The position numbers and the translations under genes were made by a program. A stretch of 58,220 bases of DNA from the NCBI GenBank assembly GCA_023247795.1, contig JAHFFT010000010.1, positions 1 to 58,220 of the forward strand, in the 5' to 3' direction. Shown one piece after another: positions 1 to 19,598 of the stretch; position 1 is the stretch's first letter; every line of letters starts with the position of its first letter. Under the pieces are notes generated by a model, which did no database searches, was not told the DNA's origin, and saw only the letters and a program-made list of their open reading frames with translations. The DNA is from Candidatus Omnitrophota bacterium. Its GTDB lineage: Bacteria > Omnitrophota > Gorgyraeia > Zapsychrales > JANLHA01.

Positions 1-43
1 CAATCTCCAAAAGCTAACGGCTCCTCTTACCAAACCCATTCTC

Positions 44-106
44 GTGGGGGCCATGGCTTTAATGCTTGGCCTGGCCATCGTTTCCGTTGGTGGAAAGGCG
101 CTTGCC
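44..106 (+). other. Signal-peptide-like hydrophobic N-terminus of gene 1
   Basis: MGAMALMLGLAIVSVGGKALA is a hydrophobic core ending in an A-L-A cleavage-type motif. Lys residues lie just upstream in the still-open frame. Confidence 0.5.
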
Positions 107-3100: not shown

Positions 3101-6100
3101 CTTCTGAATCGTACGGATCCCTCGTGGTGGACGCGTTTAGCGGATTCGGTGAATATCGCGGTGAACGGCCATTCCATCACGGAACAAGATATCGAAGGCG
3201 ATACTCATCAGGCTCTCCGCATAAGAATTTTACGCGAGGTCATCACTCAACACGAAGAAGCGTATTTATTGGCTCTCGCGCAAGTCACGAGTAGCTACAC
3301 AAGATATCCGGAATTAAATACCATTCTTGACGAAGGAAGGGTTATGACTGAGTTCATGGTGGCGATACATCGAATGGCCATTGACCATCATTTGATTGAC
3401 GGTGAAATCATCGAGGCGGTGGGTTCAGGGAATGATGAAATAACGGCAGGGAGTTATTTGACTTTAATCGCAAGACTTTACGCCATAGCGGAATGGTACG
3501 CCGCTAGTGAATCATTAGGTGCAAATTCTCCAGAAGGTTATTTCCCATTAACTCTGTATACAGATCAAGGAGCTCAAGGCATTTATTATGTGTTTCAGTT
3601 GCTTCAAGTGTATAGGGATGTCTTGGGAATTCCAGAGACGGCGTTTCAAAATTCGCCTGAAATTTTAGCGCGAGCGCTTAACCGTATTCTGCGCGAGATT
3701 AACGGACCGGATACGGTCGACCTCTATCAACCCCAGCGATTACCCTTTGATAAGTTCCATGACACTATCCGCTTTTTTTCTCAGGAATATCAACGTAGTG
3801 GAAATATCGATGCCTATTCAGGTTTATCAGGACTTCTTAAACTTGCCCAAGAGCTGGGGGGAGTTCATTTAGGAGACCTTGTTAATGCGTTCAAAGATGA
3901 TCTGGTGATCAAGAATTTGTGGGGTGTTTCCGATTTGGACTGGCCAACCATCAATCTTTCTTACAATGCCTTCGTGAATGGCGAAGTCAGCACCCAGCAA
4001 ATGCTGGTATTGATATCTTATTTGCAAAATGATCGCCCGAACATTCGGCAGAAAGCGTTCTTGTCCTTGCTTCGTTTTATTGAAAACGCGGATGATTCCA
4101 CACCCGCCAATCGAGAGTTGATAGCCACGGCGATCCGCGCGGTGAATGACGCGCGGCAATCATTTGCACTTGCCAACGCTCCAAAATTTTCCGTTAGCGC
4201 AAAAGTCCTTTCTCGATTTGCTCAAGTGCTTTTGCCTTCCTGGACTGGAGAGAGACAATTAGATGCAATCGCTTTAGGCGCAGGAGTAACGTTGATAGAT
4301 GAGTCCTTAGAAGGTGGCCCAGCGGAGTTCTTAGAAGAAGGCCCATTAAAAGACGCGCTTTTTCAAGCAGAGATTAGCCATATTTTTAACCATATTGCCG
4401 GGTCCGATGTCATTACAAGTGATTATGTTCTTTCTCATTTTAAGTCTCCAGGAAATTCAGGGCAAGAGCTCGTCAGTGAATCCCTGGCTTTTATTGACAG
4501 CGAAGGAAATTGGCAGGCCTTGGCCGATCACGCTGGATTAAAGGAGCCGAAGAGTAGAAATGAAAAGTTAGCGGTGCTCAGCGCGGCGATAGCCAGGAGC
4601 TTATGGCTGAGTGATAATTTCATCAATGGCCATTGGACAGAAGAGGAAAGAAAAGAATTCATGGCATTATCTTATAGTTTGAATATTACGCGTTCTACTT
4701 TGAATGTTTTGTCTTTCCTTGTTGAAGAAATTAGGGAACGCAAAGCACAGAATATTATTCTTAAGCCTTATCAAGTCGGGGCCGTGCCTATCGGCCAGCC
4801 ATGGTCCCTAGAAACGGTCAGTGAGTCCCAGGCGAGTTATACGCGCGCGGGGGCAGTGTCCGCAGCTTTGGCGGGGGCTGTCAAAGATCTTCGTGTGGGT
4901 GAGCACGCTTTATTTTTAGGCGACACACCCGGATCTCGTTTGACTAAGGAAGATATGGCTGATCTAAAGAGTCAGTTACCACCAGATGCTGCCCAAGGCG
5001 CTGAGCACGCTTGGGAATTGAAAAAGGGAGAGGAAATTTTCCGCTATACTTTTGTCGCAAGGAAAATCGGCGCCACTACCCTTTGGGTCGAGGCCAATTC
5101 AGGATACGAGCCGGGCGGCGTACATGATTCTCTATTGCAGGATGCCTGGGTTCAAATAGCGAAGGAAGGGCTTGATCCTTCGGCGGCTCTTGTTCGGTTT
5201 CAGAGTGCTCACATTATCAGCAAGGTTCTTCATACCAATGGCCGGGTTGAAGTGGTTGATCTTTTGGCTGGAAATCCCGCGCAAGATGGTTTTCTTTTTT
5301 ATCACAAGTCCCTGGATGAAAAGTTGAATGAATTGAACGCGCGTGTGCGGCCAGGGTTAGACGGAGGATTAGGCGGAGGCGATATCTTCCGTCAGGTTCT
5401 GGACGAGCATGAACCGTGGCATGAAGTGCTAGGCCGGGATACTCCGCAAGCAGAAGAAGAGCGTGTTCAAATGGATATCCAGAGATTGATCGAGCTTGCC
5501 AGGCAAAATAAAATTGAAATCATCAAGTTAGCGAATGCCCTTGCGGATACCGGTATGGTGACCCAAAGATTTAAGGACCGCCTGATGACGAGCGGATTTG
5601 AAGCTTTAAGCAAGGAAGAGCCAGCGTATATTGGCGAGCTTCATAGGGCGATCCTTGCTGTGTTGGGTAACGGGAATGTCACTGAAGAAAAACTCACCGC
5701 GCTTATTCCAGTCGTGGCAAGGCGGATTATAGAAGAGGGCGTATTGACGATGGATGGGATCGGAGATTTGGGGAAGGTGGATTCTGTTCTTCTCGCGCTT
5801 GACGCTTATGGCTACGGGAACAGGATCCTATTTTCTATCATGGGCCAGCGTCTGCAGGATTTGCTTGCGTATGTCGGCGCTATTAAGGCAAATTATTTCA
5901 CGCTTGCGCAGTCAACAGCGTCCCCTCCTGCTTTGATAAATGCCGGTTACGAACTCGCGTATTCTGTTTCGAGAGGTCTTATCACCCGCGCAACAGCAAA
6001 GGATCGGGTAGCGGAAATAATTTCGCATCTGCTCACGAAATATAAGCTTTCCGAAGACGACAGACAGATTCTTGAAGGCTTACTTGATCCCCGGCGGCCT

Positions 6101-9100
6101 AACACGATTGATGATTGGCCTGAGAATATTACGGGAAAAGTTTTGATAGAAGAACTTGACATACTGCTACCGCATTTTTTCCAAATAGAGGGACCGGAGG
6201 ATGCTAATGGCATAAACAGTTTCGATTTGCCGAACGATGGAATCATATTAAGGATACTTCAGGAGATACGAAAGGAATCTCTGAGTAAAAGGTTGGAGTT
6301 TTCGAATTATCATGACAGTGGTAATGACAGGGTGGGATACGCTTGGGAGCTCGCACTTCTGACAACAGGAGATGTGGTTGTATCGTTTTATCGTACACCA
6401 CTTACAAATAGGGGCATGTATTCACTGTACGGATACGGAGAACCGCGAGAACCGCTGGCCCAGTTTTTACTTTACGATACCACGCGGGGTATTTTAAATA
6501 TGCCTGAGCTTGTTTACAGAATAAATCAGGATCACGATGACAGCGAAAAAGAACCTTGGGAGATCCGTCCTGTGCTGGGTGATGGGGATGTCACTGAGGG
6601 GAAACTCGAAGCGCTTCGTCCAGTCATGGCAGGGATGATCGGAAAAGAGGGCGTATTGACGATGAACGGGATCGAAGATTTGGTGACGGATGATTCCGTT
6701 CTTCTCTGGCTTGCCGCTTATGGTTACACGGGCAGGATCAAGTCTCCTCTGAGCCAGCGTCTGCAGGATGCGCTTGCGTATGGCGATGGTGTTATGGCGA
6801 AGTATAACACACTTGAGCAGTCAACAACAGTGTCCCCTAATTTGCAAGACGCCGGTTACGAACTCGCGTATGCTGTTGAGAAAGGTCTTATTCTACGTAA
6901 AACAGCAACAGAGCGTGGATCGAAAATGATTGCGTATCTGATCGCGAAATATGACCTTTCTGAAAATGACAGAAGGATTCTTAGAGACTTGCTTGATCCC
7001 CTGGTGTCTGGCTGGATCAATGAATCGAATTTAGTTTTTATTTCGCCCACAGAGGAAGAACCGCCCATAAGAGGCAACATCAGCCAGGGATACACGGCCG
7101 ATGAAGAAGCGGCGATCAGGAAAGAAATTATTGCAAATAGCGATCAAGTGCGAAACGCCAATGAAGACGTGGTGGCTCTTGCGGAAGAGCGCAGTCGAGT
7201 ATTCTTAGAGACTTATAAAACCAAGATGGAGGAAGTTTTAAGAAGAAGGATTGCAGAGACGATTAGGGAGGAAGGGTTACCTGACGATCAAATAGAAACC
7301 GAGGTGAATCGGCAAATCGAAACAATGAATTCCATTCTCACAAATCCAAGAGACCTTCTTCACTGGTTTGACTCAAAGGTAGAAGGAGAGGACAAGTTTT
7401 ATCTTGGCAATGAAAGCGCTCGGGCCGTAGACCTGATCCGTTTTTTAAAGGAAGCGGAAGAGCAGGGAGAGATCAAGAATCTCATTGAGCGGTATTTATT
7501 CCACGAAGCCGCGGAGAACACAAGTCTGTCCCACAATGAAATTATTGATGCGGAAGCTGAGATTTTTAATGATCCAGCAGTCGAGAGTCCGGGACAGACT
7601 CTTTTGGGTGTGAAGCTCCGGAAATTTATTGATGAACAAGCGGTTGCGTGGTACTCCAAGCTAGATACTCAAACGATCCGCGAGTCCCAGGCGAGTTATA
7701 CGCGCGCGGGGGCAGTGTCCGCAGCTTTGGCGTGGGCCGTCAAAGATCTTCGTGTGGGTGAGCACGCTCTATTTTTAGGCGACACACCCGAATCCCGTTT
7801 GACTAAGGAAGATATGGCTGATTTAAAGAGTCAGTTACCACAAGATGCTGCTGAAGGCACTGAGCACGCTTGGGAATTGAAAAAGGGAGAGGAAATTTTG
7901 CGCTTTAATTTTGTCGCAAGGAAAATCGGCGCCACTACCCTTTGGGTCGAGGCCAATTCAGGATACGAGCCGGGCGGCGTACATGATTCTCTATTGAAGG
8001 ATGCCTGGGTTCAAATAGCGAAGGAAGGGCTTGATCCTTCGGCGGCTCTTGTTCGGTTTCAGAGTGCTCACATTATCAGCAAGGTTCTTCAAGCCAATGG
8101 CCGGGTTGAGGTGGTTGATCTTTTGGCTGGAAATCCCGCGCAAGATGGTTTTCTTTTTTATCACAAGTCCCTGGATGAAAAGTTGAATGAATTGAACGCG
8201 CGTGTGCGGCCAGGGTTAGACGGAGGATTAGGCGGAGGCGATATCTTCCGTCAGGTTCTGGACGAGCATGAACCGTGGCATGAAGTTCCGGGCCGGGATA
8301 CTCCAGAAGCTGAAGAAGAGCGCGTTCAAATGGATATTCAAAGATTGATCGAACTTGCCCGGCAAAATAAAATTGAAATCATCCCATTAGCGAATGCCCT
8401 TGCGGATACCGGTATGGTGACCCCAGAATTTAAGAACCGCTTGTTAACGAGCGGACTTGAAGCCTTAAGCAATGAAAAGATTGCGGAAATCGATTTATCA
8501 ATTCTTAAGAATTTACTTGATTGGCGTCTTGCGGCACTAGTAGAGTTAGAACAGATTGCCGGAGAAGGCACTTATATCACGACCATGGGTCAAACGGAGT
8601 CAGGATACCTTGTTGTAACGTTTCGCAAGCGGGGTGTAGGTGGTGCGATGATCCAAGTGTACTGGCCAAAATGGGCATCAAGCTCTGACGAGGCTTTTAT
8701 TTTAGATCATGGCCAGATTTATTTTTTAAAGAGCAAGACACCCTCGCCTTTCGCTTCTGCAGGTCTGATGGATCTCGCAGAGCGGGAACCTCAGTTTCAG
8801 GCTTTACGAGACTTCCTGCCGGATTTACGGGTCGCTTTGCAGCGACAATTGGATAAGACGCAAGTCGTTTTAAATCAAGAGCCCGAGGAAGTTCGTGCCC
8901 TGCTTGCGCCTATGCTCAATGCATTACTGAATGAGTTCCGAGGAGCGTTCAATCGCCCTGAAGCCATCCCCACCGCGATGAGGCGGCTCGCCCTGCTTGA
9001 AATACAAATGCGGCATTTTGCCAAACTGATACGGGAGCGTATATCAGCCGGAGAAGGGCTTGAGCTTAAAAAGATAGAAAATCCCCAGGGAGACAGGATT

Positions 9101-12100
9101 AATCTATCGGGTAAGCAGTTTAGGATCCATCCGACTGTGATGCAAGAGGTGAAAACCATGTTTCGCGTCCAGAGGCCCAATGCTGCTGAGATTACGGCTG
9201 TTCTTTTAGTGCGCTATAATCCCTACGATTCAAGCGGGCTTCCGCAGGTGTTGACCATTTCTGGGGACGCGACCGATCCTGCCGTTTTTTTCGTTAACGG
9301 ACAGAGGACAGAGTTAACTAAGGTGAATGAAATCGAAGACGATGACGTACAGCTTTTTGTGACGACGACGAAGGACAACGTGACGTATGACCGCGACGGC
9401 CGTATCGAAATTTCGCGCGTCCGATTTGTCATAACACCTCGAAATCACGCAGAAAACTTCCGAAACGATTTTCGTTTTCAAATAAGCGGAGTGGTGGATG
9501 CGGGCGGCTTTAGCGCTAAGCGTCCTAGCGGCATTTCCATATGGACTGCCGATGGCAGTTTTGTGTCACGGATTGTGATTGAGCCAAGGCAGGACAACCG
9601 TCAAGTGATTACCATCAATGGCACAAAGTATTCATTCGATGCGCTGCCATTAAGACCGACCATCCGGCTGTTTGATTTTATCCCGCAGCTTGCCGACCGG
9701 CTTGTCATGAGTGAACCTCTCGCCATCACTCAGAAGGGAATGGTATTCGCCCGCGGTCTTAAATTTCAAGTATTGCCCGATAACGTTGATTTTAACCAAA
9801 TAAAGGATAGGTTAGAGGCTAGATTATATTGGAAGGTTGATCGACCGGAGCACATTGAAATCAGAGATAAAGCGAATAATGTTCTTCTTGCCCGTATTGA
9901 TTTTCGTGGCAGCAAAGTTGTATTGGTAAACTCGGGCGAAGAAGTCATCTTGATAGAAAGCGACACTGGTCAGAAAAATTTTGTAGTTTATCCCTATAGT
10001 CCGGAATTATTATCATGGATAAAACAATTTGTGGCCTCAGTCTCGACAGATCCCATTACGAATATGAACGGTGTTGTTAACCTTGGCGATCATAGATTTC
10101 GCATTTATCCTGCCCTATCAGGCATTGAAACAGAAGAAGAGACTGCATTCAGAGCCTATTTAAACCAACGAATTTTAATCGAGTCTAAGCCGCTAATAGG
10201 CAGCCTTGGGAATGTTGAACACACGCTTATGCTAGGGGATCAAATGATGCTGCGCATCTCGCTTTTGCAGCGTGGTAAAGTGAGGATTGAAGCGGGGGCT
10301 TTGGAAACGGACGAGGAACCTATTACGCAAGAATTGGATCTTCCGGATGCTCGATCGGTCATTGATTTACTCAACTTAATTCCTCTTTACAAACAGCACA
10401 TCGATCAGCTTCGGCAGGAATTCCAAATCAACCAGGAATTTTCGACGGAAGAAGACGCAGCAGAAATCCCCTCCCAAATCGGCAATGATTCTTTTGTAAG
10501 TGGGATTGTTTTGGATGAAAACGCAAAACCTCAAACAGCCAAGATGAAAGATAAAGTAGGAAATCCACTTTCTGATTTAAAACTTACGGAAGCCGGCAAT
10601 TTTGATGTCCAGGCTGGTTTAGACGTTCTCAAAGAACAACTTGAGTATCCTGAAAATTCCGACCATCAAGCCATCTTGAACGGACTTAAGAATTTTGCTC
10701 CTCAGCATGGACTGCCTGAATATACAGTTGATCCACAACCTGAACACGGAAATTTCACGGCTCACGTTCCAGAAAATCTCGACATCTTGATTGCGCATGT
10801 TGGTCTTGACAGTCTTCCCACCGAACTCAAAGCATTGGTATTTTCTTTCCATGAAGAAGGCCACCGGCAGGCTGACCGTAAGAATTTGACCCTGATCCCC
10901 GTTGAAGCAGGAGAGGGAGGGCCTGCGATAACAGTTCAATTCCAAAATCAAGATCCAATCAATCTGAAACTCACCCAAGCGAATGCGATTAGGATTTTTG
11001 AGAAATACCGAACGGCCAAAGAACAAGGTCTCGATCCCAATCACTATCTTCTTTGGGCCATGGCAGAAGAGATGTTTCCCAGGCTTGATCAAAAGCTGAC
11101 GCAAACCCTAACTCAAATCACCGATGGCCATCATTTCAAAACCATTCGGGAAGCCGCAGGACTTGACCAAGAAGAGCTTGCCTTTCAAGTAGGAATATCT
11201 TCTCCGTTCCTTTACCAAATCGAGCGGGGCATTTATCCTATCACCCTCTCACTTCGCTTGCGTCTTACAACTGCTCTTTTACCTCATTTAGGCAATGATC
11301 TCAAAGCTCAAACATGGCTGGTGAGCCGGTTTAACGAGGAGTTCACTCAAACTCCTCGTGTGAGTTTATCAATTCCACCCCAGGAAATTTCCCAAGCTAA
11401 AGAGTGGCTTAAATCTGATGAGGCAAAAAAAGTTCTGCCCCAAGATCTTCAAACACTCTCACTCTTTCAATCCGCTTTGGACTCTCATCCGGCAACTATG
11501 GATGAGGTTTTGGATTTGAACACACTTTCAGATGGCCAAAAGCTCCTTGGGATTCGTTGGATACTGAATTTGACTCAAAGAGGTCTTGCCCGCACAGCGG
11601 GAATATCTTACTCGCTTATCAGCCAAATCGAGCAAGACAATAGGCCTATCACCCTCTCAACCCGCTTGCGTCTTACGATTGCCCTTTTACCTCATTTAGG
11701 CGAGTATCCCAGAGCTCAAGATTGGCTTCTTGATGGGTTAAGTAGCGCCATCCCTCTAGCATCAGACAGTCAACTTTCCGCTGCCGCCCAAGGTATTGAG
11801 ACGGCACAAGCTTTCCTGAATTCAGTCACCGAAGACGTGTTGAGTCAAGATCGGATAGCGCAATTAAATCTCATTCTGAAAAGAATCGAAGAAAAGATAT
11901 TTTATTTGTCCGGCGGAATCCAAGAATTGCATAGATTGTTGACCTCTGCATCGGGAGCCGACCGTCAAGTGGCGGCAAATCGCATTCTGAATCTGGATCG
12001 AAACGATGGGGAGTTGCTGGATGGAGTTATCAATTTGCTTAATCAAGTGACCCATGATGCGAGCTTAGCGCAAGACATTCGTGACCACGCGCAAAGTGTG

Positions 12101-15100
12101 AGCAAGTGGCGGGAGGGATTAGACAAAGCTTTTGCGTGGCTTGAAATGGCCGGGGTTCCTATGATAGCGACAACGGTTACCTTTAGTTCTGGGGAATCTG
12201 TCACTGTGCGAAGGAATCAAGATGAAATTTTGATCGCGGGAAATTCTTCGCCGCCTACAGCAGAAGAGCTATTCAAAACCATTGCTGCCAGATTAGACCC
12301 CAACCTTCTTGACTATCACCAGCCTATTTTCATTGAGGATTCATGGATTGTTTTGCGCGCCCCGCATCCAAATTCACTAAGCCCAGAGCGGCTGGATTCT
12401 TTGGTTGACGAGCTTTATGAAGCCGGCGCTTTATGGGGTGAATCGCTCAGGCCCGACCGGGCCGCGATTAAGCGCCGACTCATCGATCACCCTGGCGGCC
12501 ACAGCTTTTTGCTTGATGCAAAGGGGCGAATTCATGGTGTTATCTACAGCTCCAAATTAAATACGAATACGGTAGGGGATCTTCCAGGAGAATGGCTGAG
12601 CATGAGTCAGAGTCACGACCCTCAAGGAAATACACGGGTTGATTATGACGTTTCCATTCTTCCCAGAGGAGTTCAGAGACCTCAAAGTATCAATTCCAGC
12701 GTCCTTATTCACCATCAACAGGTCCTCGCTCAAAAGGAAGGTCTCGATTTTCTTTATGCCTACAGCCGCCCTGCGGGTTACCAAAGCTTTGTGGATTTAT
12801 ACGGTAAGGACTTTGAGCGGGAGTTTAAGGTTGAACTTACTGTGAAACATTATTTGGGCGCGATGCGGTATCTGGGTGCGCCTCTTGCTTCGTATGACCA
12901 CGATTTTTTTGAAAAAGAATTGTTTCAGTATTGGAAAGAGTTGCTTGGAGATAATTGGGCTCAAAGGGTGAGTGCGATGGATGAGAGTCAAACGGTTCAG
13001 GCTTTAGAAGGGTTGTCTGCTTTCATTGTGGATCGAGGATATCAACATGCTGATTTTGTTCTTGGGTTACACTTGAGCCAGGGCGCTCAAGTGGCTCGGA
13101 TCATCCCGAACGGACGGCCCGAAGATCTCGGGGCCGGCGGTTTTAATGTTGTGATGGGATATCCTGTTCAGCGTTTGAGTCAGATTGTTGTCAGGCACTA
13201 CCCTGAAGACGTGAGATTATTTGTCGAAAGCTGGATTTTAGATTTTACGGCTGGCCGATTTGGAACTGAATCCAGTAATGAGCAGGTAACAAACTTTGCG
13301 GCCGTCATGCTTGGGTCGGTTCAGGAAAAGCTTGCTATACCGCTTGCCGATGGCGGCGGAGTATCGATCCTTAGGAATTTCGACGCGCCGCTTACGATCG
13401 TGTGGATTACGGGAGATGAGGATTTTTCCGTGATGCGATTTGATGAAAATGGAAATCTCTTATCGTCCAGCCATACGAGTGTGGCGGATGCGCTTAATGA
13501 GAGTATAGACATTACCCTCATCCATCCATTGAAAGAAATCTGGAGCGTCAGCCAAAATGAGGATGTGAAAAATGGAATAGAGGATTTGCTTCAGAGTCTT
13601 GAGCTGGCGATTCCAGCGGGTGTGTTTGGACTCAAGCAGGTTTTGACTGAAGCGTATACTTCCGGGGGAAGGCTTTCAGAGTTTGACCGTGTGATGGTGG
13701 AGCAATATTTTTCAAAGATGAATTCACGGCCCATTCAAATTGTCGATATGGCCGCGAGCAGCGGAATCACAAGTTTGGATCTAGCCAAAGTTCTTGAAGA
13801 GAAAGATATTCCTTCGGTCGTCACGTCATCCGATATTGCTGTCGAGCTGCGGGTGGTGAGAAGCGGAACAAGTGTTGGCGTTTTCGATTCTCATGAAAAT
13901 TTACTTCAGGTCAGAATTATGAAAGAAAATGGATCGGACGATGAGGGTGAGGAGGAAATTTTTTACGCGGATAATTTAGATCAATTGCCTGACGGGCTAC
14001 AAAGCAGTTTGGAAGCGCAGTATGCGATGGGTAAATACACTTCATTTAATCGCACCGATCCAAGAGTTGAGTCGCACAAGCAGGGCATTGTGGAGCTGAA
14101 AGTCAAAGAGATTGATGTCACCGATCCCGGGCTTGAAAAGGATACCTACGACGTGGTTCGGCTGTTTAACTTCCTGCGTTATTTTGAGAACAGCGCATCG
14201 GAGGTGACTTCAGCGATTTTAATCAATGCCGGACGGTCACTCAAAAATGGCGGCTATCTTTTCGCGGGCAGAGGATCCGACGAAGGTTATCAATATGCCG
14301 TGTGGCAAAGGGTGGACAATCAACTCATCCGCGTGTCAACGGACGATCCACCGGCGAATTATCTTCTAAACCAAGGGAACCTTAGTTTAGCTGATTCCGC
14401 ACCTCAGATTAAATTCGAAGCTTTAGGCAAGCCAAAGACAATGACAGATGAGGAAATGGTTGCCAAGATTCAGAGTGAGGGGCTTTGGGTTCAGAGTGAT
14501 ACTGAACTGCGCGCGAATATCGAAAGTTTTGGCGGAAATGTTGAGGCCAAGTACCACGAGCTTGCGGATAATCCCGAGATCGAGATTCGTTTTTTCCGTG
14601 ATGTAAATGCGATTGGATTCCGCCAAGGGAATATTGTTTGGTTGAATGAATGGCTTGGAAGCGCTCATCAGGCTCACGCGCCTCCTGGTTTTGACATCGA
14701 AGCGCACCGAAGCGTTCTCGAGTACATTCTCACTGAGCAGACCCATCATAACTCCACAACCGGCACCTTTGCCGAAGAGTTCACTGAAGAAGTCAGCGCC
14801 GGACTTGCGGGAATAACGGTTTTAGTCAGAGACATTCACAATCAGAATGATATGAAAAAGCGCATTCACGACCACGTGGTCATTACAGGGGGGTTCCCGC
14901 CTGACGCGATTCTTTTGGATGAAGTTTTAGACTTGGCTGAGCTTTTTGCCGAGCAAGACTGGTTTTCCAGCGAAGGGAAACTGGCAGATGCGGCAAGGGG
15001 AAGTTATGCCTGGTTTGTCGCGGAATACTACCAAGCTTACTCGTCGCTTTACCAGTTTGCCGAGGAGGTTCATGAGAGCGACGCTACGGAAGGTTTGCTG

Positions 15101-17443
15101 ACGCTCTTTGAAACAACTCCCATCGTTTCTCGGACATTGCAGCGTGTGTATCGAAGCGATCCTGCGATGCGGTTTATCACAAAAGACATGATTCAATCGG
15201 TGAACATTTCTTATGTTGGAACAGGCGATTTTCGAGATGTCTATCACGTGACGGTTACACTGCGCAATCAAACCACCAGGGAATTTGCGCTTAAGATCAG
15301 TAAGAGCCTTCAGAAAAATTCTCACATGGTTAAAAGTTTTGTGGTCGAACGACCGGGGACGCAGAGGGAGATGAGCATCTGGGAATTGCCGAACGGCCGT
15401 CTTGTGTTGACAGAGCCTTACTATGCGGGAGATGACTTCGCAAATGTTCAATTTGCTTTTATGTCTGGGAAAATTTCAAAACAAAGTTTTGATCAAGCAA
15501 CGCGGGCAGTTGCTCGGGAGTCTATTGGTTTTTGGGAGCGTACAGGAGGGTATTTTATTGGGGATCCAAAGCAAGATCAATATCGGATGGAAAGTCCCGA
15601 GAAAGAGAACGATCCATGGGTGGCTCATCTGATTGATACGGGTTTTATCGAACAATACCGCTCAGACGCAGACGTGCATTATGAGGTCATCAATGACGGT
15701 GATGTCAGCGTTTTGAATTCCGAAGGCACAGCCCTAAGACCCAATGAATGGCTGAAGCTCATGGGTCCTACCGAGATCATGTTTAATTTTGCGTATTGGT
15801 TATTCTATTCCGGTCCTGAGGGTTTTGATGAGACGTCCGTTTTATTTGCCGTTGCTCCCGACCAGATGCGACTAATTCGCAATCTCTTCAGTCAAATAGA
15901 TATATCGCGAGAAGCAGTGGTTGATGGAGTGCTGGATGCATTAAGCCATGAGCCAGGCGCGGGCAGGGATTTTTTGAGAGCCATCGATCTTCAGGCTGTT
16001 CAGGACGACGCGCTTTCGATTGCTGCGACGGATGCGTTAATAAAATTATATGAGCAGGAATTTGGCATTACCGCACAAACTCCTGACGGCCGCCGCGGGC
16101 AGTTTGTTGCGGCGCTTGCGAGGCGTGCTGCCACTACGGCAGACCTGGAACAGCGCGAACAAGATTTACGGCTGGCAAAGACGGCTGCAGGCTTAATCCG
16201 TAATAACATTTCGCGGGGAGAAGCCTGGCTTGCAATCGGAAAAGCTGAAGCGGCGCTCGGGCGTGATCCAAGCAATAGTTTGAGCATCGCAAGAAACTCC
16301 GCAGTGGAAGGCTTACAACGCTTGATGAATGACGGAGCTTTTACGGCGGATCGATTTGGAACTGAATCCAGTAATGAGCAGGTAACAAACTTTGCGCGTG
16401 TGATGCTTGGGTCGGTTCAGGAAAAACTCGCGATACCGCTTGCCGATGGCGGCGGGGTGTCAATCCTTAGGAATTTTGACGCGCCGCTCACCATCGTGTG
16501 GATTACGGGGGATGAGGATTTTTCCGTGATGCGATTTGATGAAGAAGGGAATCTTTTTTCGTCCTTCTATTCCAGTCATACGGATGTGGTGCGAATGGAT
16601 TGGAGTGTAGACATTACCATCATCCATCCTTTGAAAGAAATCTGGAGCGTTAGCAAAAATGAGGGTGTGAAAAATCTAATAGAGTATTGGCTTAACGGTG
16701 GCTTTGGTTTAGAAATACAATTGGGTGTGGTCAGCGCTGATGTGACCACGTCTCAAGGCAAGCTTGCAGAATTTGACCGTCTGATGGTAGACCAATACCT
16801 TTCACCAATGAGCTCGCAGAGCTCGCATCCCCTTCAAATTGCTGATATGGGTGCCAGCACTGGAATTACAAGCTTAGATCTAGCCAAGATTCTTGAGGAA
16901 AGAAATATTTCATCGGTAGTCACCTCATCGGATATTACTCTTGAACTTCGTGTAGTGAGAAGCGGATCGCATGTTGGCATTTTCGATTCTCATGGAAATT
17001 TACTTTGGGCCAGAATCACGAAAGAAGATGTATCAAATGAGGAACTGGAAGCGCAGTATGCGATGGGTAAATACACTTCATTTAATCGCACGGATCCAAG
17101 AGTTGAGTCGCACAAGCAGGGCATTGTGGAGCTGAAAGTCAAAGAGACGGATGTCACCGATCCCGGGCTTGAAAAGGATACCTACGACGTGGTTCGGCTG
17201 TTTAACGTCCTGCGTTTTCTTGAAACTCGCTCACCCGATACGATTCCAGCGATTTTAATCAATGTCGGACGGTCACTCAAAAATGGCGGTTATCTTTTCG
17301 CGGGCAGAGGATCCGACAATGATTATCAATATGCCGTGTGGCAAAGGGTGGACAATCAACTCATCCGCGTGCCAACGGACGACCCACGGGCGAATTATCT
17401 TCCAAACCAAGGGAACCTTAGTTTAGCTGATTTAGCACCGTAG
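44..17443 (+). CDS. Giant secreted multidomain mosaic protein (5,799 codons as tracked; possibly 5'-partial)
   Basis: ORF-track entry with a 17.4-kb uninterrupted frame and TAG stop at 17441-17443. The N-terminus LVGAMALMLGLAIVSVGGKALA/PMP looks like a signal peptide. Positions 2-43 in the same frame carry no stop (NLQKLTAPLTKPIL), so GTG44 or ATG53 may not be the true start. Confidence 0.9.
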   Translation: MGAMALMLGLAIVSVGGKALAPMPVSIAPVTAVQKNAAVADLVKIIAAENMQTPVSEWRVQEAWRMLESLPPSDYGIYFVDDLSSKMGDAAGEFRRGVVLDSGIVLIEKSLDPIERKYTYVDLMTRQALESIDNDSYMIGDTSAALRYASGEKLVDAALKNDAVDWNGLAAFLGRTPSDGQMTEALKYILLKGALAWRIEYEERSAQGEITPEEETFLKTLQSYLNSLAVRDLYTEMRAVLAEHQFISPDLLRSIDSAGPTADTVEELTQPSNTANSLTAHDPSGGLAAIFGALFGLLPLIGRMSRSDEVSKDRIERYKRAVAELRFLRGDWAGGNREFLEFFKKEAQTTDSTIQRLLSQQDQAVLAIFSIPTNQRSRLKQSLRSTIIEIMQREFKAIIAAGGSLHFDLTNLRTGDIQDDQQWSYNFDIDIEFSALIEDPEIFNSPNTHFYHSGRDSTASVREGILALRNNPLQEGEEAGKRKPGMVGSGRGKRKVVISPDDQEKAREALEEFITKYTTPGDPISRAFGIQLTKNEAQQIYRMRKGTIGALPRPLAEKLVGAVRAKINDEELEKNWIDRLVAFVATHHYPGDGQILYEFITYVMDETEPINHFGKQFGFSLNILYDYLWARRTFDQSPETEIYLQRLLDLSKTPEDHAHWLARFHKSDVSAGNISRGFTAEEDVQIRRDNEKNSAQVKAAEEAKPDDDNMVKLIAQRRKNLLEKYAHDIRLELEHAHVSEEDIVKVGALLSEMPAFWANSRVEGEERFWLGNESARAVDVLRFLKTREETGDVKNLVEEYDLHEILHNTPLTHEQIITITNKIFRRNDTNPLGQALRGFITLSQLRSSPSGLHNAVNVINLLAKREALGVSLSADQEEMLTSLTQALNSLPSSGDFFQYGAVFMSREGMNAMLKRLPDLRQSLPETEPRSFTLKSGLMIFSDYADIFVIPEGMESPLRNSIRNRLQRDGVLGFATYDPPAPEIRDEYRLILRESRYRREVFYGVFSRVLEDNPDLWSAVLLNRTDPSWWTRLADSVNIAVNGHSITEQDIEGDTHQALRIRILREVITQHEEAYLLALAQVTSSYTRYPELNTILDEGRVMTEFMVAIHRMAIDHHLIDGEIIEAVGSGNDEITAGSYLTLIARLYAIAEWYAASESLGANSPEGYFPLTLYTDQGAQGIYYVFQLLQVYRDVLGIPETAFQNSPEILARALNRILREINGPDTVDLYQPQRLPFDKFHDTIRFFSQEYQRSGNIDAYSGLSGLLKLAQELGGVHLGDLVNAFKDDLVIKNLWGVSDLDWPTINLSYNAFVNGEVSTQQMLVLISYLQNDRPNIRQKAFLSLLRFIENADDSTPANRELIATAIRAVNDARQSFALANAPKFSVSAKVLSRFAQVLLPSWTGERQLDAIALGAGVTLIDESLEGGPAEFLEEGPLKDALFQAEISHIFNHIAGSDVITSDYVLSHFKSPGNSGQELVSESLAFIDSEGNWQALADHAGLKEPKSRNEKLAVLSAAIARSLWLSDNFINGHWTEEERKEFMALSYSLNITRSTLNVLSFLVEEIRERKAQNIILKPYQVGAVPIGQPWSLETVSESQASYTRAGAVSAALAGAVKDLRVGEHALFLGDTPGSRLTKEDMADLKSQLPPDAAQGAEHAWELKKGEEIFRYTFVARKIGATTLWVEANSGYEPGGVHDSLLQDAWVQIAKEGLDPSAALVRFQSAHIISKVLHTNGRVEVVDLLAGNPAQDGFLFYHKSLDEKLNELNARVRPGLDGGLGGGDIFRQVLDEHEPWHEVLGRDTPQAEEERVQMDIQRLIELARQNKIEIIKLANALADTGMVTQRFKDRLMTSGFEALSKEEPAYIGELHRAILAVLGNGNVTEEKLTALIPVVARRIIEEGVLTMDGIGDLGKVDSVLLALDAYGYGNRILFSIMGQRLQDLLAYVGAIKANYFTLAQSTASPPALINAGYELAYSVSRGLITRATAKDRVAEIISHLLTKYKLSEDDRQILEGLLDPRRPNTIDDWPENITGKVLIEELDILLPHFFQIEGPEDANGINSFDLPNDGIILRILQEIRKESLSKRLEFSNYHDSGNDRVGYAWELALLTTGDVVVSFYRTPLTNRGMYSLYGYGEPREPLAQFLLYDTTRGILNMPELVYRINQDHDDSEKEPWEIRPVLGDGDVTEGKLEALRPVMAGMIGKEGVLTMNGIEDLVTDDSVLLWLAAYGYTGRIKSPLSQRLQDALAYGDGVMAKYNTLEQSTTVSPNLQDAGYELAYAVEKGLILRKTATERGSKMIAYLIAKYDLSENDRRILRDLLDPLVSGWINESNLVFISPTEEEPPIRGNISQGYTADEEAAIRKEIIANSDQVRNANEDVVALAEERSRVFLETYKTKMEEVLRRRIAETIREEGLPDDQIETEVNRQIETMNSILTNPRDLLHWFDSKVEGEDKFYLGNESARAVDLIRFLKEAEEQGEIKNLIERYLFHEAAENTSLSHNEIIDAEAEIFNDPAVESPGQTLLGVKLRKFIDEQAVAWYSKLDTQTIRESQASYTRAGAVSAALAWAVKDLRVGEHALFLGDTPESRLTKEDMADLKSQLPQDAAEGTEHAWELKKGEEILRFNFVARKIGATTLWVEANSGYEPGGVHDSLLKDAWVQIAKEGLDPSAALVRFQSAHIISKVLQANGRVEVVDLLAGNPAQDGFLFYHKSLDEKLNELNARVRPGLDGGLGGGDIFRQVLDEHEPWHEVPGRDTPEAEEERVQMDIQRLIELARQNKIEIIPLANALADTGMVTPEFKNRLLTSGLEALSNEKIAEIDLSILKNLLDWRLAALVELEQIAGEGTYITTMGQTESGYLVVTFRKRGVGGAMIQVYWPKWASSSDEAFILDHGQIYFLKSKTPSPFASAGLMDLAEREPQFQALRDFLPDLRVALQRQLDKTQVVLNQEPEEVRALLAPMLNALLNEFRGAFNRPEAIPTAMRRLALLEIQMRHFAKLIRERISAGEGLELKKIENPQGDRINLSGKQFRIHPTVMQEVKTMFRVQRPNAAEITAVLLVRYNPYDSSGLPQVLTISGDATDPAVFFVNGQRTELTKVNEIEDDDVQLFVTTTKDNVTYDRDGRIEISRVRFVITPRNHAENFRNDFRFQISGVVDAGGFSAKRPSGISIWTADGSFVSRIVIEPRQDNRQVITINGTKYSFDALPLRPTIRLFDFIPQLADRLVMSEPLAITQKGMVFARGLKFQVLPDNVDFNQIKDRLEARLYWKVDRPEHIEIRDKANNVLLARIDFRGSKVVLVNSGEEVILIESDTGQKNFVVYPYSPELLSWIKQFVASVSTDPITNMNGVVNLGDHRFRIYPALSGIETEEETAFRAYLNQRILIESKPLIGSLGNVEHTLMLGDQMMLRISLLQRGKVRIEAGALETDEEPITQELDLPDARSVIDLLNLIPLYKQHIDQLRQEFQINQEFSTEEDAAEIPSQIGNDSFVSGIVLDENAKPQTAKMKDKVGNPLSDLKLTEAGNFDVQAGLDVLKEQLEYPENSDHQAILNGLKNFAPQHGLPEYTVDPQPEHGNFTAHVPENLDILIAHVGLDSLPTELKALVFSFHEEGHRQADRKNLTLIPVEAGEGGPAITVQFQNQDPINLKLTQANAIRIFEKYRTAKEQGLDPNHYLLWAMAEEMFPRLDQKLTQTLTQITDGHHFKTIREAAGLDQEELAFQVGISSPFLYQIERGIYPITLSLRLRLTTALLPHLGNDLKAQTWLVSRFNEEFTQTPRVSLSIPPQEISQAKEWLKSDEAKKVLPQDLQTLSLFQSALDSHPATMDEVLDLNTLSDGQKLLGIRWILNLTQRGLARTAGISYSLISQIEQDNRPITLSTRLRLTIALLPHLGEYPRAQDWLLDGLSSAIPLASDSQLSAAAQGIETAQAFLNSVTEDVLSQDRIAQLNLILKRIEEKIFYLSGGIQELHRLLTSASGADRQVAANRILNLDRNDGELLDGVINLLNQVTHDASLAQDIRDHAQSVSKWREGLDKAFAWLEMAGVPMIATTVTFSSGESVTVRRNQDEILIAGNSSPPTAEELFKTIAARLDPNLLDYHQPIFIEDSWIVLRAPHPNSLSPERLDSLVDELYEAGALWGESLRPDRAAIKRRLIDHPGGHSFLLDAKGRIHGVIYSSKLNTNTVGDLPGEWLSMSQSHDPQGNTRVDYDVSILPRGVQRPQSINSSVLIHHQQVLAQKEGLDFLYAYSRPAGYQSFVDLYGKDFEREFKVELTVKHYLGAMRYLGAPLASYDHDFFEKELFQYWKELLGDNWAQRVSAMDESQTVQALEGLSAFIVDRGYQHADFVLGLHLSQGAQVARIIPNGRPEDLGAGGFNVVMGYPVQRLSQIVVRHYPEDVRLFVESWILDFTAGRFGTESSNEQVTNFAAVMLGSVQEKLAIPLADGGGVSILRNFDAPLTIVWITGDEDFSVMRFDENGNLLSSSHTSVADALNESIDITLIHPLKEIWSVSQNEDVKNGIEDLLQSLELAIPAGVFGLKQVLTEAYTSGGRLSEFDRVMVEQYFSKMNSRPIQIVDMAASSGITSLDLAKVLEEKDIPSVVTSSDIAVELRVVRSGTSVGVFDSHENLLQVRIMKENGSDDEGEEEIFYADNLDQLPDGLQSSLEAQYAMGKYTSFNRTDPRVESHKQGIVELKVKEIDVTDPGLEKDTYDVVRLFNFLRYFENSASEVTSAILINAGRSLKNGGYLFAGRGSDEGYQYAVWQRVDNQLIRVSTDDPPANYLLNQGNLSLADSAPQIKFEALGKPKTMTDEEMVAKIQSEGLWVQSDTELRANIESFGGNVEAKYHELADNPEIEIRFFRDVNAIGFRQGNIVWLNEWLGSAHQAHAPPGFDIEAHRSVLEYILTEQTHHNSTTGTFAEEFTEEVSAGLAGITVLVRDIHNQNDMKKRIHDHVVITGGFPPDAILLDEVLDLAELFAEQDWFSSEGKLADAARGSYAWFVAEYYQAYSSLYQFAEEVHESDATEGLLTLFETTPIVSRTLQRVYRSDPAMRFITKDMIQSVNISYVGTGDFRDVYHVTVTLRNQTTREFALKISKSLQKNSHMVKSFVVERPGTQREMSIWELPNGRLVLTEPYYAGDDFANVQFAFMSGKISKQSFDQATRAVARESIGFWERTGGYFIGDPKQDQYRMESPEKENDPWVAHLIDTGFIEQYRSDADVHYEVINDGDVSVLNSEGTALRPNEWLKLMGPTEIMFNFAYWLFYSGPEGFDETSVLFAVAPDQMRLIRNLFSQIDISREAVVDGVLDALSHEPGAGRDFLRAIDLQAVQDDALSIAATDALIKLYEQEFGITAQTPDGRRGQFVAALARRAATTADLEQREQDLRLAKTAAGLIRNNISRGEAWLAIGKAEAALGRDPSNSLSIARNSAVEGLQRLMNDGAFTADRFGTESSNEQVTNFARVMLGSVQEKLAIPLADGGGVSILRNFDAPLTIVWITGDEDFSVMRFDEEGNLFSSFYSSHTDVVRMDWSVDITIIHPLKEIWSVSKNEGVKNLIEYWLNGGFGLEIQLGVVSADVTTSQGKLAEFDRLMVDQYLSPMSSQSSHPLQIADMGASTGITSLDLAKILEERNISSVVTSSDITLELRVVRSGSHVGIFDSHGNLLWARITKEDVSNEELEAQYAMGKYTSFNRTDPRVESHKQGIVELKVKETDVTDPGLEKDTYDVVRLFNVLRFLETRSPDTIPAILINVGRSLKNGGYLFAGRGSDNDYQYAVWQRVDNQLIRVPTDDPRANYLPNQGNLSLADLAP
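4823..5614 (+). repeat. Copy A of a near-identical ~792-bp in-frame direct duplication within gene 1
   Basis: ESQASYTRAGAVSAALAGAVKDLRVGEHALFLGDTP...RLMTSGFEALS aligns gap-free with 7682-8473 at an offset of 2,859 nt (953 codons). By eye I count about 19 differences in about 264 residues, with long stretches of identical DNA. Confidence 0.9.
7682..8473 (+). repeat. Copy B of the near-identical ~792-bp duplication within gene 1
   Basis: ESQASYTRAGAVSAALAWAVKDLRVGEHALFLGDTP...RLLTSGLEALS is colinear with 4823-5614. Confidence 0.9.
11117..11293 (+). other. XRE/Cro-C1-type helix-turn-helix unit 1 inside gene 1
   Basis: ITDGHHFKTIREAAGLDQEELAFQVGISSPFLYQIERGIYPITLSLRLRLTTALLPHLG matches the XRE HTH pattern (L..iR...Gl.qeeLA...Gis...is.iErG...p.......l..aL). 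Confidence 0.7.
11525..11701 (+). other. XRE/Cro-C1-type helix-turn-helix unit 2 inside gene 1
   Basis: LSDGQKLLGIRWILNLTQRGLARTAGISYSLISQIEQDNRPITLSTRLRLTIALLPHLG lies 136 codons downstream of unit 1 and is clearly paralogous to it. Confidence 0.7.
13257..14405 (+). repeat. Copy A of a ~1.1-kb duplicated module in gene 1 (beta-rich region plus CheR-like methyltransferase)
   Basis: FGTESSNEQVTNFAAVMLGSVQEKLAIPLADGGGVSILRNFDAPLTIVWITGDEDFSVMRFDE...NQGNLSLADSAP recurs at 16353-17440. Several runs of roughly 40-80 nt are identical, and there are a few indels. Confidence 0.85.
13729..14340 (+). other. CheR-like class I SAM-dependent methyltransferase unit 1
   Basis: PIQIVDMAASSGITSLDLAKVLEE matches the CheR-type motif I (iWsaGCstGEEpYSlA). 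YDVVRLFNFLRYFENSASEVTSAILINAGRSLKNGGYLFAGRGSD matches fDvIfCRNVliYF....L.pGGyL.lG. Confidence 0.55.
15200..15800 (+). other. Protein-kinase-like (PKL) fold unit in gene 1
   Basis: VGTGDFRDVYHV is a GxGxFxxV-type glycine loop and EFALKIS is a VAIK-like lysine strand. LVLTEPYYAG is hinge-like, FIGDPKQDQY resembles a catalytic loop, and HLIDTGF is DFG-like. Confidence 0.45.
16353..17440 (+). repeat. Copy B of the ~1.1-kb duplicated module, forming the C-terminus of gene 1
   Basis: FGTESSNEQVTNFARVMLGSVQEKLAIPLADGGGVSILRNFDAPLTIVWITGDEDFSVMRFDE...NQGNLSLADLAP, followed directly by the stop codon. Confidence 0.85.
16826..17375 (+). other. CheR-like class I SAM-dependent methyltransferase unit 2
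   Basis: HPLQIADMGASTGITSLDLAKILEE ... YDVVRLFNVLRFLETRSPDTIPAILINVGRSLKNGGYLFAGRGSD is a paralogue of unit 1. Confidence 0.55.
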
Positions 17444-17660
17444 ACCCAACTTCGACAGTTTGCTTCAAGAATTTTTGTAATAGTTCAGCCCTTCTGTGCA
17501 ACTGATACATCGTTTACATTTTACTCATCCCATCGGAGGGGGCAGTACTATGACATCGATTGTCTATTATTTTTTTGACGTTTTTCAAGTGGTCTCTTTG
17601 GAGCGTCTGGGAACGCGTCCTTCTAGAGTTTGCCGGTCTTGAAGAGTCCGGGTGAAATTT

Positions 17661-17699
17661 ATAGTTCTCATTGACAATGAGAACTATTGATGTTATCCT
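17661..17699 (+). promoter_or_regulatory. Sigma70-like promoter overlapped by a 27-bp palindromic operator, upstream of the ATPase gene
   Basis: ATAGTTCTCATT-GAC-AATGAGAACTAT (17661-17687) has perfect 12-bp inverted arms. TTGACA (17671-17676) sits in its centre. A 17-nt spacer leads to an extended -10 TGtTATCCT (17691-17699). Confidence 0.5.
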
Positions 17700-17730
17700 C
17701 TCATTTAGAATGAGAAGAAAGGAGGCTGCG

Positions 17731-19008
17731 ATGCAAAAGCATTTGTTAAAAGAGATCGTTCTTGAACAGGAAAAAGACCGTCAAGAGTTTGACGCGGGCA
17801 TCCCAAGGGCCGCGCTCAGTGTTGTTTTGCGGTACGCGTCTTTGCCTCATGCTGTGGTTGTGTCCGGGGTGCGACGTTGCGGTAAGTCAACACTTCTCAA
17901 TCAGGTTATCAATGACCATTATAAGAAGGGCGTTTATTATCTCAACTTTGAGGATGAACGGCTTGTCAATTTTAAAGTTGATGATTTCAATGATCTTTAT
18001 GAAGTATTTTTAGAACTTTATGGAGAGAAGAAAGTTTTTTTTCTTGATGAAATTCAAAATGTCCCTCAATGGGAAGTCTTTGTGCGCCGGATGCAAGGGA
18101 AAGGGCACAAATTTTTTATTACTGGGTCGAACGCGTCTTTGTTGAGTAAAGAGCTTGGTACAAAATTATCCGGCAGAAACGTTAACGTTGAATTGTTTCC
18201 GTTTTCTTTTAAGGAGTTCCTTTCCTTTATGGATTTTAATCTGTCCAAGAACGGGTTATCTTTAACGACCGAGAGGGCACTGATCAAGAAGCATTTTGCC
18301 GAATACCTTAAGCACGGGGGTATGCCTGAATACTTGAAATATCAGGATCAGACGCTTCTTAAGGGAGTTTATGATGATATTCTCTATCGTGATATCGTGG
18401 CAAGATACGATATTAAGCAGGTCAAGGCGTTGCGGGAATTGGGGCTGTATTTTTTAAGCAATATTGGCACGGCGTTTTCTTACAACAATATGAAGAAAGT
18501 CCTGGGCTTGGGCAGCATGAATACCATCAAGAGTTACGCGGATTATTTAGAGAACAGTTATCTGCTGTTCCTGGTCAGTAAATTTTCTTATTCTCTTAAG
18601 GAACAATTTGTGGCTCTTAAGAAGGTTTATTGTATTGACAATGGTCTGGCAGAGTCGGTTGCTTTTCAATTCTCCAAGAACAAGGGAAAGTTTTTGGAGA
18701 ATTTGGTTTTCCTTGAGCTGAGACGGAAGTCTTCGGAAATTTATTATTATAAAACTTCGAATAATCTAGAGGTTGACTTTCTAGTCAAGTCAGGCAAGAA
18801 GGATATAACGCTTATTCAGGTTGTGGATCATTTGGATCATGAGAAGACGAGGCAAAGGGAGGTTAACGCTCTTATGAAGGCTATGGATGAGTTAAAACTT
18901 AAAACCGGCCTTATTTTGACTGACGATACTGAGGAAAAGATGACAGCAGACGGCAAGGTCATTATAGTTAAGCCCATCTATAAGTGGCTTTTGGAAGCAG
19001 CGGTTTAG
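17731..19008 (+). CDS. AAA+ ATPase of the AAA_14 + DUF4143 (COG1373-like) type
   Basis: Same frame as track ORF 17671..19008. ATG 17731 is preferred because AAAGGAGG (17718-17725) lies 5 nt upstream. Walker A is SGVRRCGKSTLL and Walker B is VFFLDEIQ. The C-terminal half (YCIDNGL...LENLVFLEL...EVDFLV) is typical of DUF4143. Confidence 0.85.
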   Translation: MQKHLLKEIVLEQEKDRQEFDAGIPRAALSVVLRYASLPHAVVVSGVRRCGKSTLLNQVINDHYKKGVYYLNFEDERLVNFKVDDFNDLYEVFLELYGEKKVFFLDEIQNVPQWEVFVRRMQGKGHKFFITGSNASLLSKELGTKLSGRNVNVELFPFSFKEFLSFMDFNLSKNGLSLTTERALIKKHFAEYLKHGGMPEYLKYQDQTLLKGVYDDILYRDIVARYDIKQVKALRELGLYFLSNIGTAFSYNNMKKVLGLGSMNTIKSYADYLENSYLLFLVSKFSYSLKEQFVALKKVYCIDNGLAESVAFQFSKNKGKFLENLVFLELRRKSSEIYYYKTSNNLEVDFLVKSGKKDITLIQVVDHLDHEKTRQREVNALMKAMDELKLKTGLILTDDTEEKMTADGKVIIVKPIYKWLLEAAV

Positions 19009-19487: not shown

Positions 19488-19598
19488 ATGTATTCCTTTC
19501 GCACCCCAAGAGGTTACAAACCGCACACCAGGATTTTAGCCGGCCTCATCATCTTCTTTTTTATATCCAATGAACTCTTTCGATCGGTTGCCTTTGCC
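19488..19598 (+). other. Signal peptide of gene 2
   Basis: MYSFRTPRGYKPHTRILAGLIIFFFISNELFRSVAFA/NP has a basic n-region, a hydrophobic core and an A-F-A cleavage-type site. Confidence 0.6.

Follow-up and report, generated by a model that had tools for sequence, protein, structure and literature searches.

The 58,220-base window analyzed here is one whole contig (C41) of a Candidatus Omnitrophota genome bin (G000; 2.29 Mb, 85 contigs, 93% complete) that carries three genes, and the first of these, the giant open reading frame ORF1, encodes two helix-turn-helix (HTH) units of the XRE type. Both units are true five-helix XRE/Cro-C1 HTH domains, produced when a stretch of about 115-135 residues was duplicated in tandem. 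They close a conserved module, some 470 residues long, that opens with a domain of about 215 amino acids (aa) containing an HExxH motif. While the domain family is textbook knowledge, the location of XRE units deep in a giant membrane protein and the conservation of the module in two, possibly three, giant frames are not. At a probability of roughly 0.4, we favor the reading that the XRE pair is tethered to the membrane, faces the cytoplasm and binds DNA as a covalently linked pair close to an enzyme array. Giant proteins of Omnitrophota are almost wholly unannotated, and the location of their parts is disputed between the main texts of two preprints (10.1101/2023.11.21.568195, 10.64898/2026.06.07.730766). 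A DNA-binding-type domain pair flanked by an HExxH domain and an enzyme cassette provides a concrete handle on these proteins, since its location would say on which face of the membrane this class works.

Sequence and fold of the two XRE domains

An initial annotation, made from the bases and their translations, had recognized two paralogous Cro/C1 units 136 codons apart at 11117..11701, and profile searches bear this assignment out. Over window positions 11000-11900, in the ORF1 frame, Pfam HTH_3 matches in two stretches with an E value of 1.1e-13 and 51.4 bits (cut-off 23), accompanied by HTH_31 at 44.7 bits (cut-off 27), HTH_19 at 42.6 bits (cut-off 30.2) and NCBIfam XRE matches of the HipB/HigA/RamB type. 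Scored individually in 400-aa tiles, unit 1 reaches 29.4 bits with HTH_3, above the cut-off of 23, and unit 2 falls slightly short (HTH_3 21.2 against 23; HTH_19 24.6 against 30.2). Chunked self-BLAST aligns aa 3703-3815 with aa 3839-3950 at 41.6% identity over 113 residues (E 5.35e-16), and the DG.. motifs at aa 3708 and 3844 give the spacing of 136 codons. Both the HTH match and the paralogy are well beyond chance.

The predicted fold of each unit is the lambda-repressor-like five-helix bundle that the XRE assignment had called for. A single-sequence AlphaFold2 (AF2) model of the 300-aa region, with a mean predicted local distance difference test (pLDDT) score of 58.9 and unit 2 below 50, was superseded by a model of aa 3485-3960 built with a four-row alignment of the module, in which the mean pLDDT is 70.1, ten-residue block means are 75-90 in unit 1 and 85-92 in unit 2, and five helices are present in each. 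Because the query is multi-domain, the whole 476-residue model has no global Foldseek match in the PDB at E<=0.001; local alignments place the controller protein C.AhdI at a root-mean-square deviation (rmsd) of 0.8 Å over 58 columns with 34% identity, C.BclI at 0.6 Å over 56 columns and the HTH_3 regulator 1y9q at 1.1 Å over 58 columns, each with a probability of 1.00. A structure search against 48,161 chains agrees: among the 50 matches listed, about 44 are, judging by their titles, XRE-type regulators, antitoxins or controller proteins, they cover model residues 212-300 and 355-432, and the units superpose on C.AhdI, DdrO, P22 c2 and ImmR. A profile built from six copies of the unit, two from ORF1 and four from the second giant frame described below, matches 39 sequences of the PDB at E<=0.01, with C.AhdI the best (1.9e-8) and C.BclI also among them (7.3e-8).

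The structural models also refine the boundaries of the units. The initial annotation had read the conserved LRLRLT.ALLPHLG...AQ.WL stretch as an extension following each HTH; its conservation is confirmed, but both the AF2 helices and the alignment to the C.AhdI profile show that it corresponds to the fourth and fifth helices of the XRE bundle (aa 3749-3762 and 3767-3782 in unit 1, aa 3885-3898 and 3903-3916 in unit 2) and adds nothing to it. Likewise, the site had been located correctly, but an end at 11701 truncates helix 5 of unit 2, which reaches about 11749.

The conserved module and its relatives

Three close copies of the upstream domain share 49-55% identity with the window copy, and the FHEEGHRQ and DPNHYLLWAM motifs are invariant in all three. 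Together, the three copies yield no Pfam match at E<=10, and alignment with hhalign against 18 Omnitrophota M78 domains extends over 12 columns around the motif with a probability of 0.3%; the PF06114 profile finds nothing at E<=1e-8 in G000, where six candidates were scored. Membership of the M78 (ImmA/IrrE) family, which the HExxH motif might suggest, is unsupported by any of these comparisons. The AF2 model of the domain has pLDDT values below 50 over model residues 1-118 and of 56-81 over the rest, and the matches listed in the structure search all fell on the HTH units. A profile search of 401 same-class genomes recovered one distant copy (E 4e-9) in a 3,917-aa frame of another genome (L041, G494:C79:8299-11529, - strand), which reads HELGE in place of HEEGH, has lost the second histidine and is not followed by an HTH.

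The HTH region finds a match at E<=1e-3 in 18 of the 401 Omnitrophota genomes, G000 included. Sixteen of the other 17 matches are weak (E 7e-5 to 1e-3) and lie in frames of 73-373 aa that are ordinary small XRE genes. The remaining one (E 8e-37) is a 7,758-aa open frame on contig 44 of G112, a genome related to that of the window only at the phylum level. Four HTH copies are present in the G112 frame, at aa 3524-3614, 5514-5622, 5653-5759 and 5781-5862, all in HTH_3-positive segments, and aa 3475-3922 of ORF1 align with aa 5297-5741 of the G112 frame at 45% identity (E 2e-104). Seventeen columns are invariant across the six aligned unit copies of the two proteins. The search for other giant proteins with internal XRE units, which the initial annotation had recommended, consequently yields one such protein, and the G112 frame is also the only other giant frame in which our searches found the full module.

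Wider searches returned no additional relative. Among contigs of species-representative genomes, 93 pattern matches reduce to one locus, the G112 contig alone. A scan of Joint Genome Institute (JGI) metagenomes with the module alignment gave 205 pattern matches without a relative, a degenerate DNA pattern for T.ALLP.L(5)AQ.WL gave four metagenome loci of which none is a relative, and 44 pattern matches in viral contigs included no relative. Word-indexed protein searches were equally negative, with residues 3640-3960 finding none among 1,781 candidates of 3,189-10,149 aa and the 479-aa module having no relative in the 7,999 scored proteins, which span 840-2,395 aa. An exhaustive phmmer search of 1.84 billion representatives produced 55 matches at E<=1e-3, none of which reached E<=1e-10 (best E 1.9e-10), and all 11 that were examined are generic multi-HTH_3 proteins. 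Since ORF1's own protein and the G112 frame are both missing from the phmmer results, giant frames may be absent from that library.

A third occurrence of the module is possible in the window itself. The last 15 codons of ORF3 (58176-58220, + strand) end in ...EDGQRLKAIRQALSL, which resembles helix 1 of the ORF1 HTH unit. A six-frame translation of the genome, 2.33 million residues in all, contains the motif DG..[LF]..IR six times; the two ORF1 units and the end of ORF3 account for three of these occurrences. Owing to this rarity and resemblance, ORF3, the neighboring surface giant, may also carry the module.

Membrane segments and predicted topology

The unusual feature noted initially was a DNA-binding fold inside a protein thought to bear a signal peptide. 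The reading frame of ORF1 extends back to base 2 without a stop codon, the bases before GTG-44 or ATG-53 show no Shine-Dalgarno-like site, and the ends of C41 have no overlap partner among the contigs of the bin (0 matches at k = 21-127, and none at the protein level). For these reasons the true N-terminus of ORF1 is not seen, and a signal peptide cannot be regarded as established, the more so as a second hydrophobic segment follows the first. A 19-residue Kyte-Doolittle scan detects just two hydrophobic segments in ORF1, the second at about aa 297-319. The flanks of this second segment (30 aa each) contain no lysine or arginine before it and nine after it, a strong positive-inside signature. 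From this charge asymmetry, aa ~320-5813 are predicted to be cytoplasmic and the loop of about 265 residues between the segments periplasmic. If ORF1 is located in this way, as seems likely, the paradox of an HTH in an exported protein largely dissolves.

Proposed function and alternative explanations

In the reading that we favor, the two hydrophobic segments near the visible N-terminus would insert the ORF1 protein in the inner membrane, so placed that everything after segment 2, including the HTH pair and the GNAT-like, methyltransferase and kinase-like regions (Table 1), would face the producer's own cytoplasm. The HTH pair would then hold a DNA site or the nucleoid beside the enzyme array of the same chain, in a way similar to one-component regulators that bind DNA from the membrane. 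XRE/Cro-C1 proteins bind DNA in a sequence-specific manner, usually as dimers. The helix 2-3 consensus is retained: a glutamine opens helix 2 in three of the six copies, and in all six helix 3 has polar residues and then an invariant I-E. This canonical arrangement fits DNA binding at the level of sequence. The downstream enzymes were also counted in favor of the cytoplasmic side: the methyltransferases, the GNAT-like domain and the kinase-like lead need S-adenosylmethionine, acyl-CoA or acyl carrier protein (acyl-ACP) and ATP, all cytosolic cofactors. The surface-type domains of ORF3 are, moreover, absent from ORF1. The main text of a 2026 preprint (10.64898/2026.06.07.730766) likewise considers methyltransferase- and GNAT-bearing giants of Omnitrophota to fit an anchor in the inner membrane with the bulk of the protein in the cytoplasm.

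Several observations weigh against this reading. Basic residues usually follow helix 3 in XRE HTH domains; they are present in just one of the six copies, so that the conservation check at the DNA-contacting positions that the initial annotation had advised gives a divided answer, and the net charge of the 69-residue cores ranges from -4 to +3. The analysis, which included a search for operator-like repeats in the two intergenic regions, identified neither an operator nor a target DNA nor a dimer contact. The topology rests on our own hydropathy window and flank charges rather than on a trained predictor, and further transmembrane (TM) segments may lie upstream, as the N-terminus is beyond the contig edge; a search of the 401 genomes with the N-terminal 383 aa gave one weak, uninformative match besides G000. 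The G112 frame has a single strong hydrophobic segment (aa 6677-6697), which lies downstream of its HTH copies and has ambiguous flanks of 2 against 3 lysines or arginines. The composition of ORF1 also counts against the favored reading: its 5,813 residues include no cysteine, whereas ORFs shorter than 1,500 aa in the genome average 1.17%. When ORFs are sorted crudely, those whose start resembles a signal peptide contain 0.63% cysteine, and 34.8% of 138 are cysteine-free, while those without TM segments contain 1.30% and are cysteine-free five-fold more rarely (6.5% of 710). The exclusion of cysteine from ORF1 therefore leans towards export. Most ORFs longer than 1,500 aa in the bin have 0-0.8% cysteine, and because nearly all giants of the genome are cysteine-poor at any TM count, the depletion may reflect size, not location. 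ORF3 has 10 cysteines in 12,911 residues, none of them between aa 1634 and 10176, and the G112 frame has 6 in 7,758.

As the main rival, the XRE fold may instead serve protein contacts, either as a site at which the neighboring HExxH domain docks or cuts, by analogy with IrrE/DdrO, ImmA/ImmR and CapP/CapH, or as a partner-binding module like the HTH of RodZ, and a cut at the hinge could detach the enzyme cassette at the C-terminal end from the part held in the membrane. The absence of cysteine and the loss of basic residues after helix 3 in five of the six copies keep this explanation alive, together with that of action in a recipient cell, but we consider it rather unlikely: the HExxH domain has neither a Pfam match nor M78 similarity, its G494 copy has a degenerate motif and no HTH, its model has low confidence over model residues 1-118, and the structural matches of DdrO, ImmR and CapH are no better than those of ordinary XRE proteins. 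A more specific version, which we rate as improbable and which draws on analogy, would make the HExxH-XRE-XRE arrangement a signal-controlled hinge, a single-chain switch like IrrE/DdrO or CapP/CapH, in which the HExxH domain would cut at the XRE units and release the cysteine-free cassette of HTH, acyltransferase, methyltransferases and kinase to act away from the membrane, possibly in an attached prey or host. If such a cleavage switch were real, it would be the first clue to the processing of polyproteins of this kind.

Delivery of the giant, or of a processed C-terminal fragment, from the producer into the cells of a prey or host, where its HTH units and enzymes would act like an effector of a predatory or epibiotic Omnitrophota bacterium, would agree with the absence of cysteine in ORF1, the cysteine depletion of exported-type ORFs and the cysteine-poor G112 homologue. 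The neighboring ORF3 is a signal-peptide surface giant ending in residues like helix 1 of the HTH module, the cofactor-dependent enzymes would function in a target cytoplasm as well, and ESM Atlas provides leads, and leads only, to OspG effector-kinase and LPD23 clusters. The main text of one preprint (10.1101/2023.11.21.568195) further describes a predatory lifestyle and presumes extracellular roles for Omnitrophota giants. There is in addition a weak NCBIfam match (E 9.6e-4, 18.7 against a cut-off of 300) to Wmk, which has been described as a two-HTH factor acting in host cells. We nevertheless judge delivery unlikely, given the positive-inside signature of segment 2, the cysteine depletion of nearly all giants in the genome at any TM count, the lack of a relative in the viral contigs scanned, and a window in which no secretion signal or secretion-system gene is recognizable and ORF2 encodes an AAA_14/DUF4143 ATPase. 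Very improbable is the view that the units descend from a captured regulator gene and are decaying without a present function, or that the frame is an assembly chimera; unit 2 by itself lies under the Pfam cut-offs and the bin, with its 85 contigs, has many giant frames broken at contig ends, but the frame is open for 17.4 kb, both units fold at high confidence in the AF2 model, and the module, with 17 invariant columns in six copies, recurs in the giant G112 frame, whose genome is related only at the phylum level. Of the three outcomes envisaged initially, the evidence thus favors a protein that is not exported, modified to one that is membrane-inserted with about 5,500 residues predicted to be cytoplasmic, over action in a recipient cell or a protein-binding fold.

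Other parts of ORF1 and neighboring genes

The features of the window are summarized in Table 1.

Table 1. Location of genes, domains and segments in the window
Feature	Position	Strand	Description
ORF1	2..17443	+	Giant frame ending in a stop after 5,813 codons; cut by the contig edge at the 5' end; 0 cysteine
Hydrophobic segment 1	35..94	+	aa 12-31; Kyte-Doolittle 19-window peak 2.29; signal anchor or internal TM segment
Hydrophobic segment 2	896..949	+	aa 299-316; predicted stop-transfer TM helix
Conserved domain before unit 1	10454..11101	+	aa 3485-3700, about 215 aa; FHEEGHRQ (HExxH 10850-10864), DPNHYLLWAM (11033-11062)
XRE/Cro-C1 HTH unit 1	11108..11347	+	aa 3703-3782, five helices; recognition helix aa 3734-3741
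Helical linker/tail between units	11348..11518	+	About 57 residues (aa 3783-3839); the copies share part of it (LS..P..I..A...PQ)
XRE/Cro-C1 HTH unit 2	11519..11749	+	aa 3840-3916, five helices
GNAT-like domain	12098..13201	+	Polyketide synthase (PKS)-loading/decarboxylase type; no Pfam match; common to the G112 frame, 37-40% identity
Methyltransferase module copy 1	13244..14404	+	CheR, Methyltransf_12 and Methyltransf_11 matches, weak by itself; paralogue of copy 2
Protein-kinase-like domain (candidate)	14900..16000	+	ESM Atlas feature matches only; no Pfam match
Methyltransferase module copy 2	16340..17440	+	Methyltransf_12 31.6 bits (cut-off 30), Methyltransf_11 28.9 bits (cut-off 21.2)
ORF2	17671..19008		AAA_14/DUF4143 ATPase (Pfam)
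ORF3	19488..58220	+	12,911 codons; runs off the contig end

Downstream of the HTH pair, the GNAT-like domain was assigned with a two-row profile against the PDB, which matches 7ucl/7uci (E 4.8e-7), GphF (E 1.6e-5) and CurA (E 6.3e-5). The methyltransferase modules are duplicated, aa 4415-4801 aligning with aa 5447-5813. The candidate kinase-like region has ESM Atlas matches of 0.93-0.95 to Pkinase, Kdo, ABC1, RIO1, APH and OspG-kinase clusters, and nine of its ten best named matches belong to one family or clan; the LPD23-bearing cluster was reached as a lead only, at 0.88 and with the domain in 44% of members. Pfam matches nothing at E<=0.001 in the rest of ORF1 (27 tiles of 400 aa scanned).

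Additional repeats are present before the module. Residues 1604-1800 and 2557-2753 are 93% identical and belong to a near-identical duplication of 4811-5800 and 7670-8617, with weaker similarity extending to aa 1933/2872. Further paralogous blocks pair aa 686-852 with 2358-2536 and aa 1884-2030 with 2188-2333, none of them with a Pfam match.

Pfam reveals no mobile-element gene adjoining ORF1. Of the marks of polyvalent proteins of phages and conjugative elements, a location on such an element and LPD-type domains, the LPD23 lead is the only one seen in ORF1. An inverted repeat of 24 nt (17650-17698; arms 79% complementary, separated by 1 nt) overlaps both a promoter-like site and the TTG listed as the start of ORF2. 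It may act as an operator or form a hairpin, without a demonstrated link to the HTH units. ORF3 encodes a signal-peptide giant with matches to RHS, immunoglobulin (Ig), cadherin-like, LamG, malectin and C39 domains, whereas ORF1 lacks the Ig, cadherin, RHS and LamG domains in Pfam searches. About 400 residues before the contig-edge end of ORF3 there is a below-cut-off match to LolA_like/MucB_RseB. Elsewhere in the bin, the ends of several 3'-open giant frames recur, at the protein level, as the starts of 5'-open frames on other contigs, as in C81 to C58 to C21 to C15, C19 to C57 to C3, and C31 to C43. Judged by these shared ends, several giant genes of the bin seem to continue across contig breaks, and the chain C81-C58-C21-C15 would exceed 34,000 aa.

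Comparison with known systems

The closest structural parallels are the restriction-modification controller proteins C.AhdI and C.BclI of the XRE/Cro-C1 family (HTH_3, PF01381), with which the ORF1 units share the five-helix bundle, the helix 2-turn-helix 3 consensus, an L..L..AL-type helix 4 and 32-34% identity. The controller proteins are free-standing, dimeric and 70-80 residues long, whereas ORF1 carries two copies about 3,700 residues into a membrane protein of 5,813 residues; its family also has invariant residues of its own (ALLP.L, AQ.WL), and most of its copies are without basic residues after helix 3. Poly-XRE proteins, which combine 2-12 tandem HTH_3 domains, supply the best phmmer matches and have several HTH_3 stretches each, but these are summed generic HTH matches (26-46% identity), and none has the upstream domain or the family-specific residues of helices 4 and 5.

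The pairs IrrE-DdrO, ImmA-ImmR and CapP-CapH (M78/COG2856) similarly couple an HExxH domain to an XRE protein, and DdrO, ImmR and CapH are among the top structural neighbors of the units. They differ in that ORF1 carries both domains on one chain, with the HExxH domain first, shows no M78 profile similarity and has a peptidase role that is putative. In RodZ and in regulators of the ToxR/CadC type, a TM segment holds a cytoplasmic HTH at the inner membrane with a periplasmic part opposite, which is the arrangement predicted for ORF1; the latter are membrane-bound one-component regulators with the HTH in the cytoplasm. RodZ and ToxR are small and have one HTH beside the TM segment, whereas the ORF1 pair lies about 3,400 residues from it, and the RodZ-type profile HTH_25 scores 17.8 bits on the HTH region, under its cut-off of 24.6.

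The main texts of the two preprints on Omnitrophota giants (10.1101/2023.11.21.568195, 10.64898/2026.06.07.730766) contain neither "HTH" nor "helix-turn-helix", and that of the latter does not contain "XRE", although their supplements may list PF01381. As these main texts describe them, the giants resemble ORF1 in exceeding 5,000 aa, in having TM segments, in combining a PF08241-type methyltransferase with a GNAT-like domain and in being little covered by Pfam.

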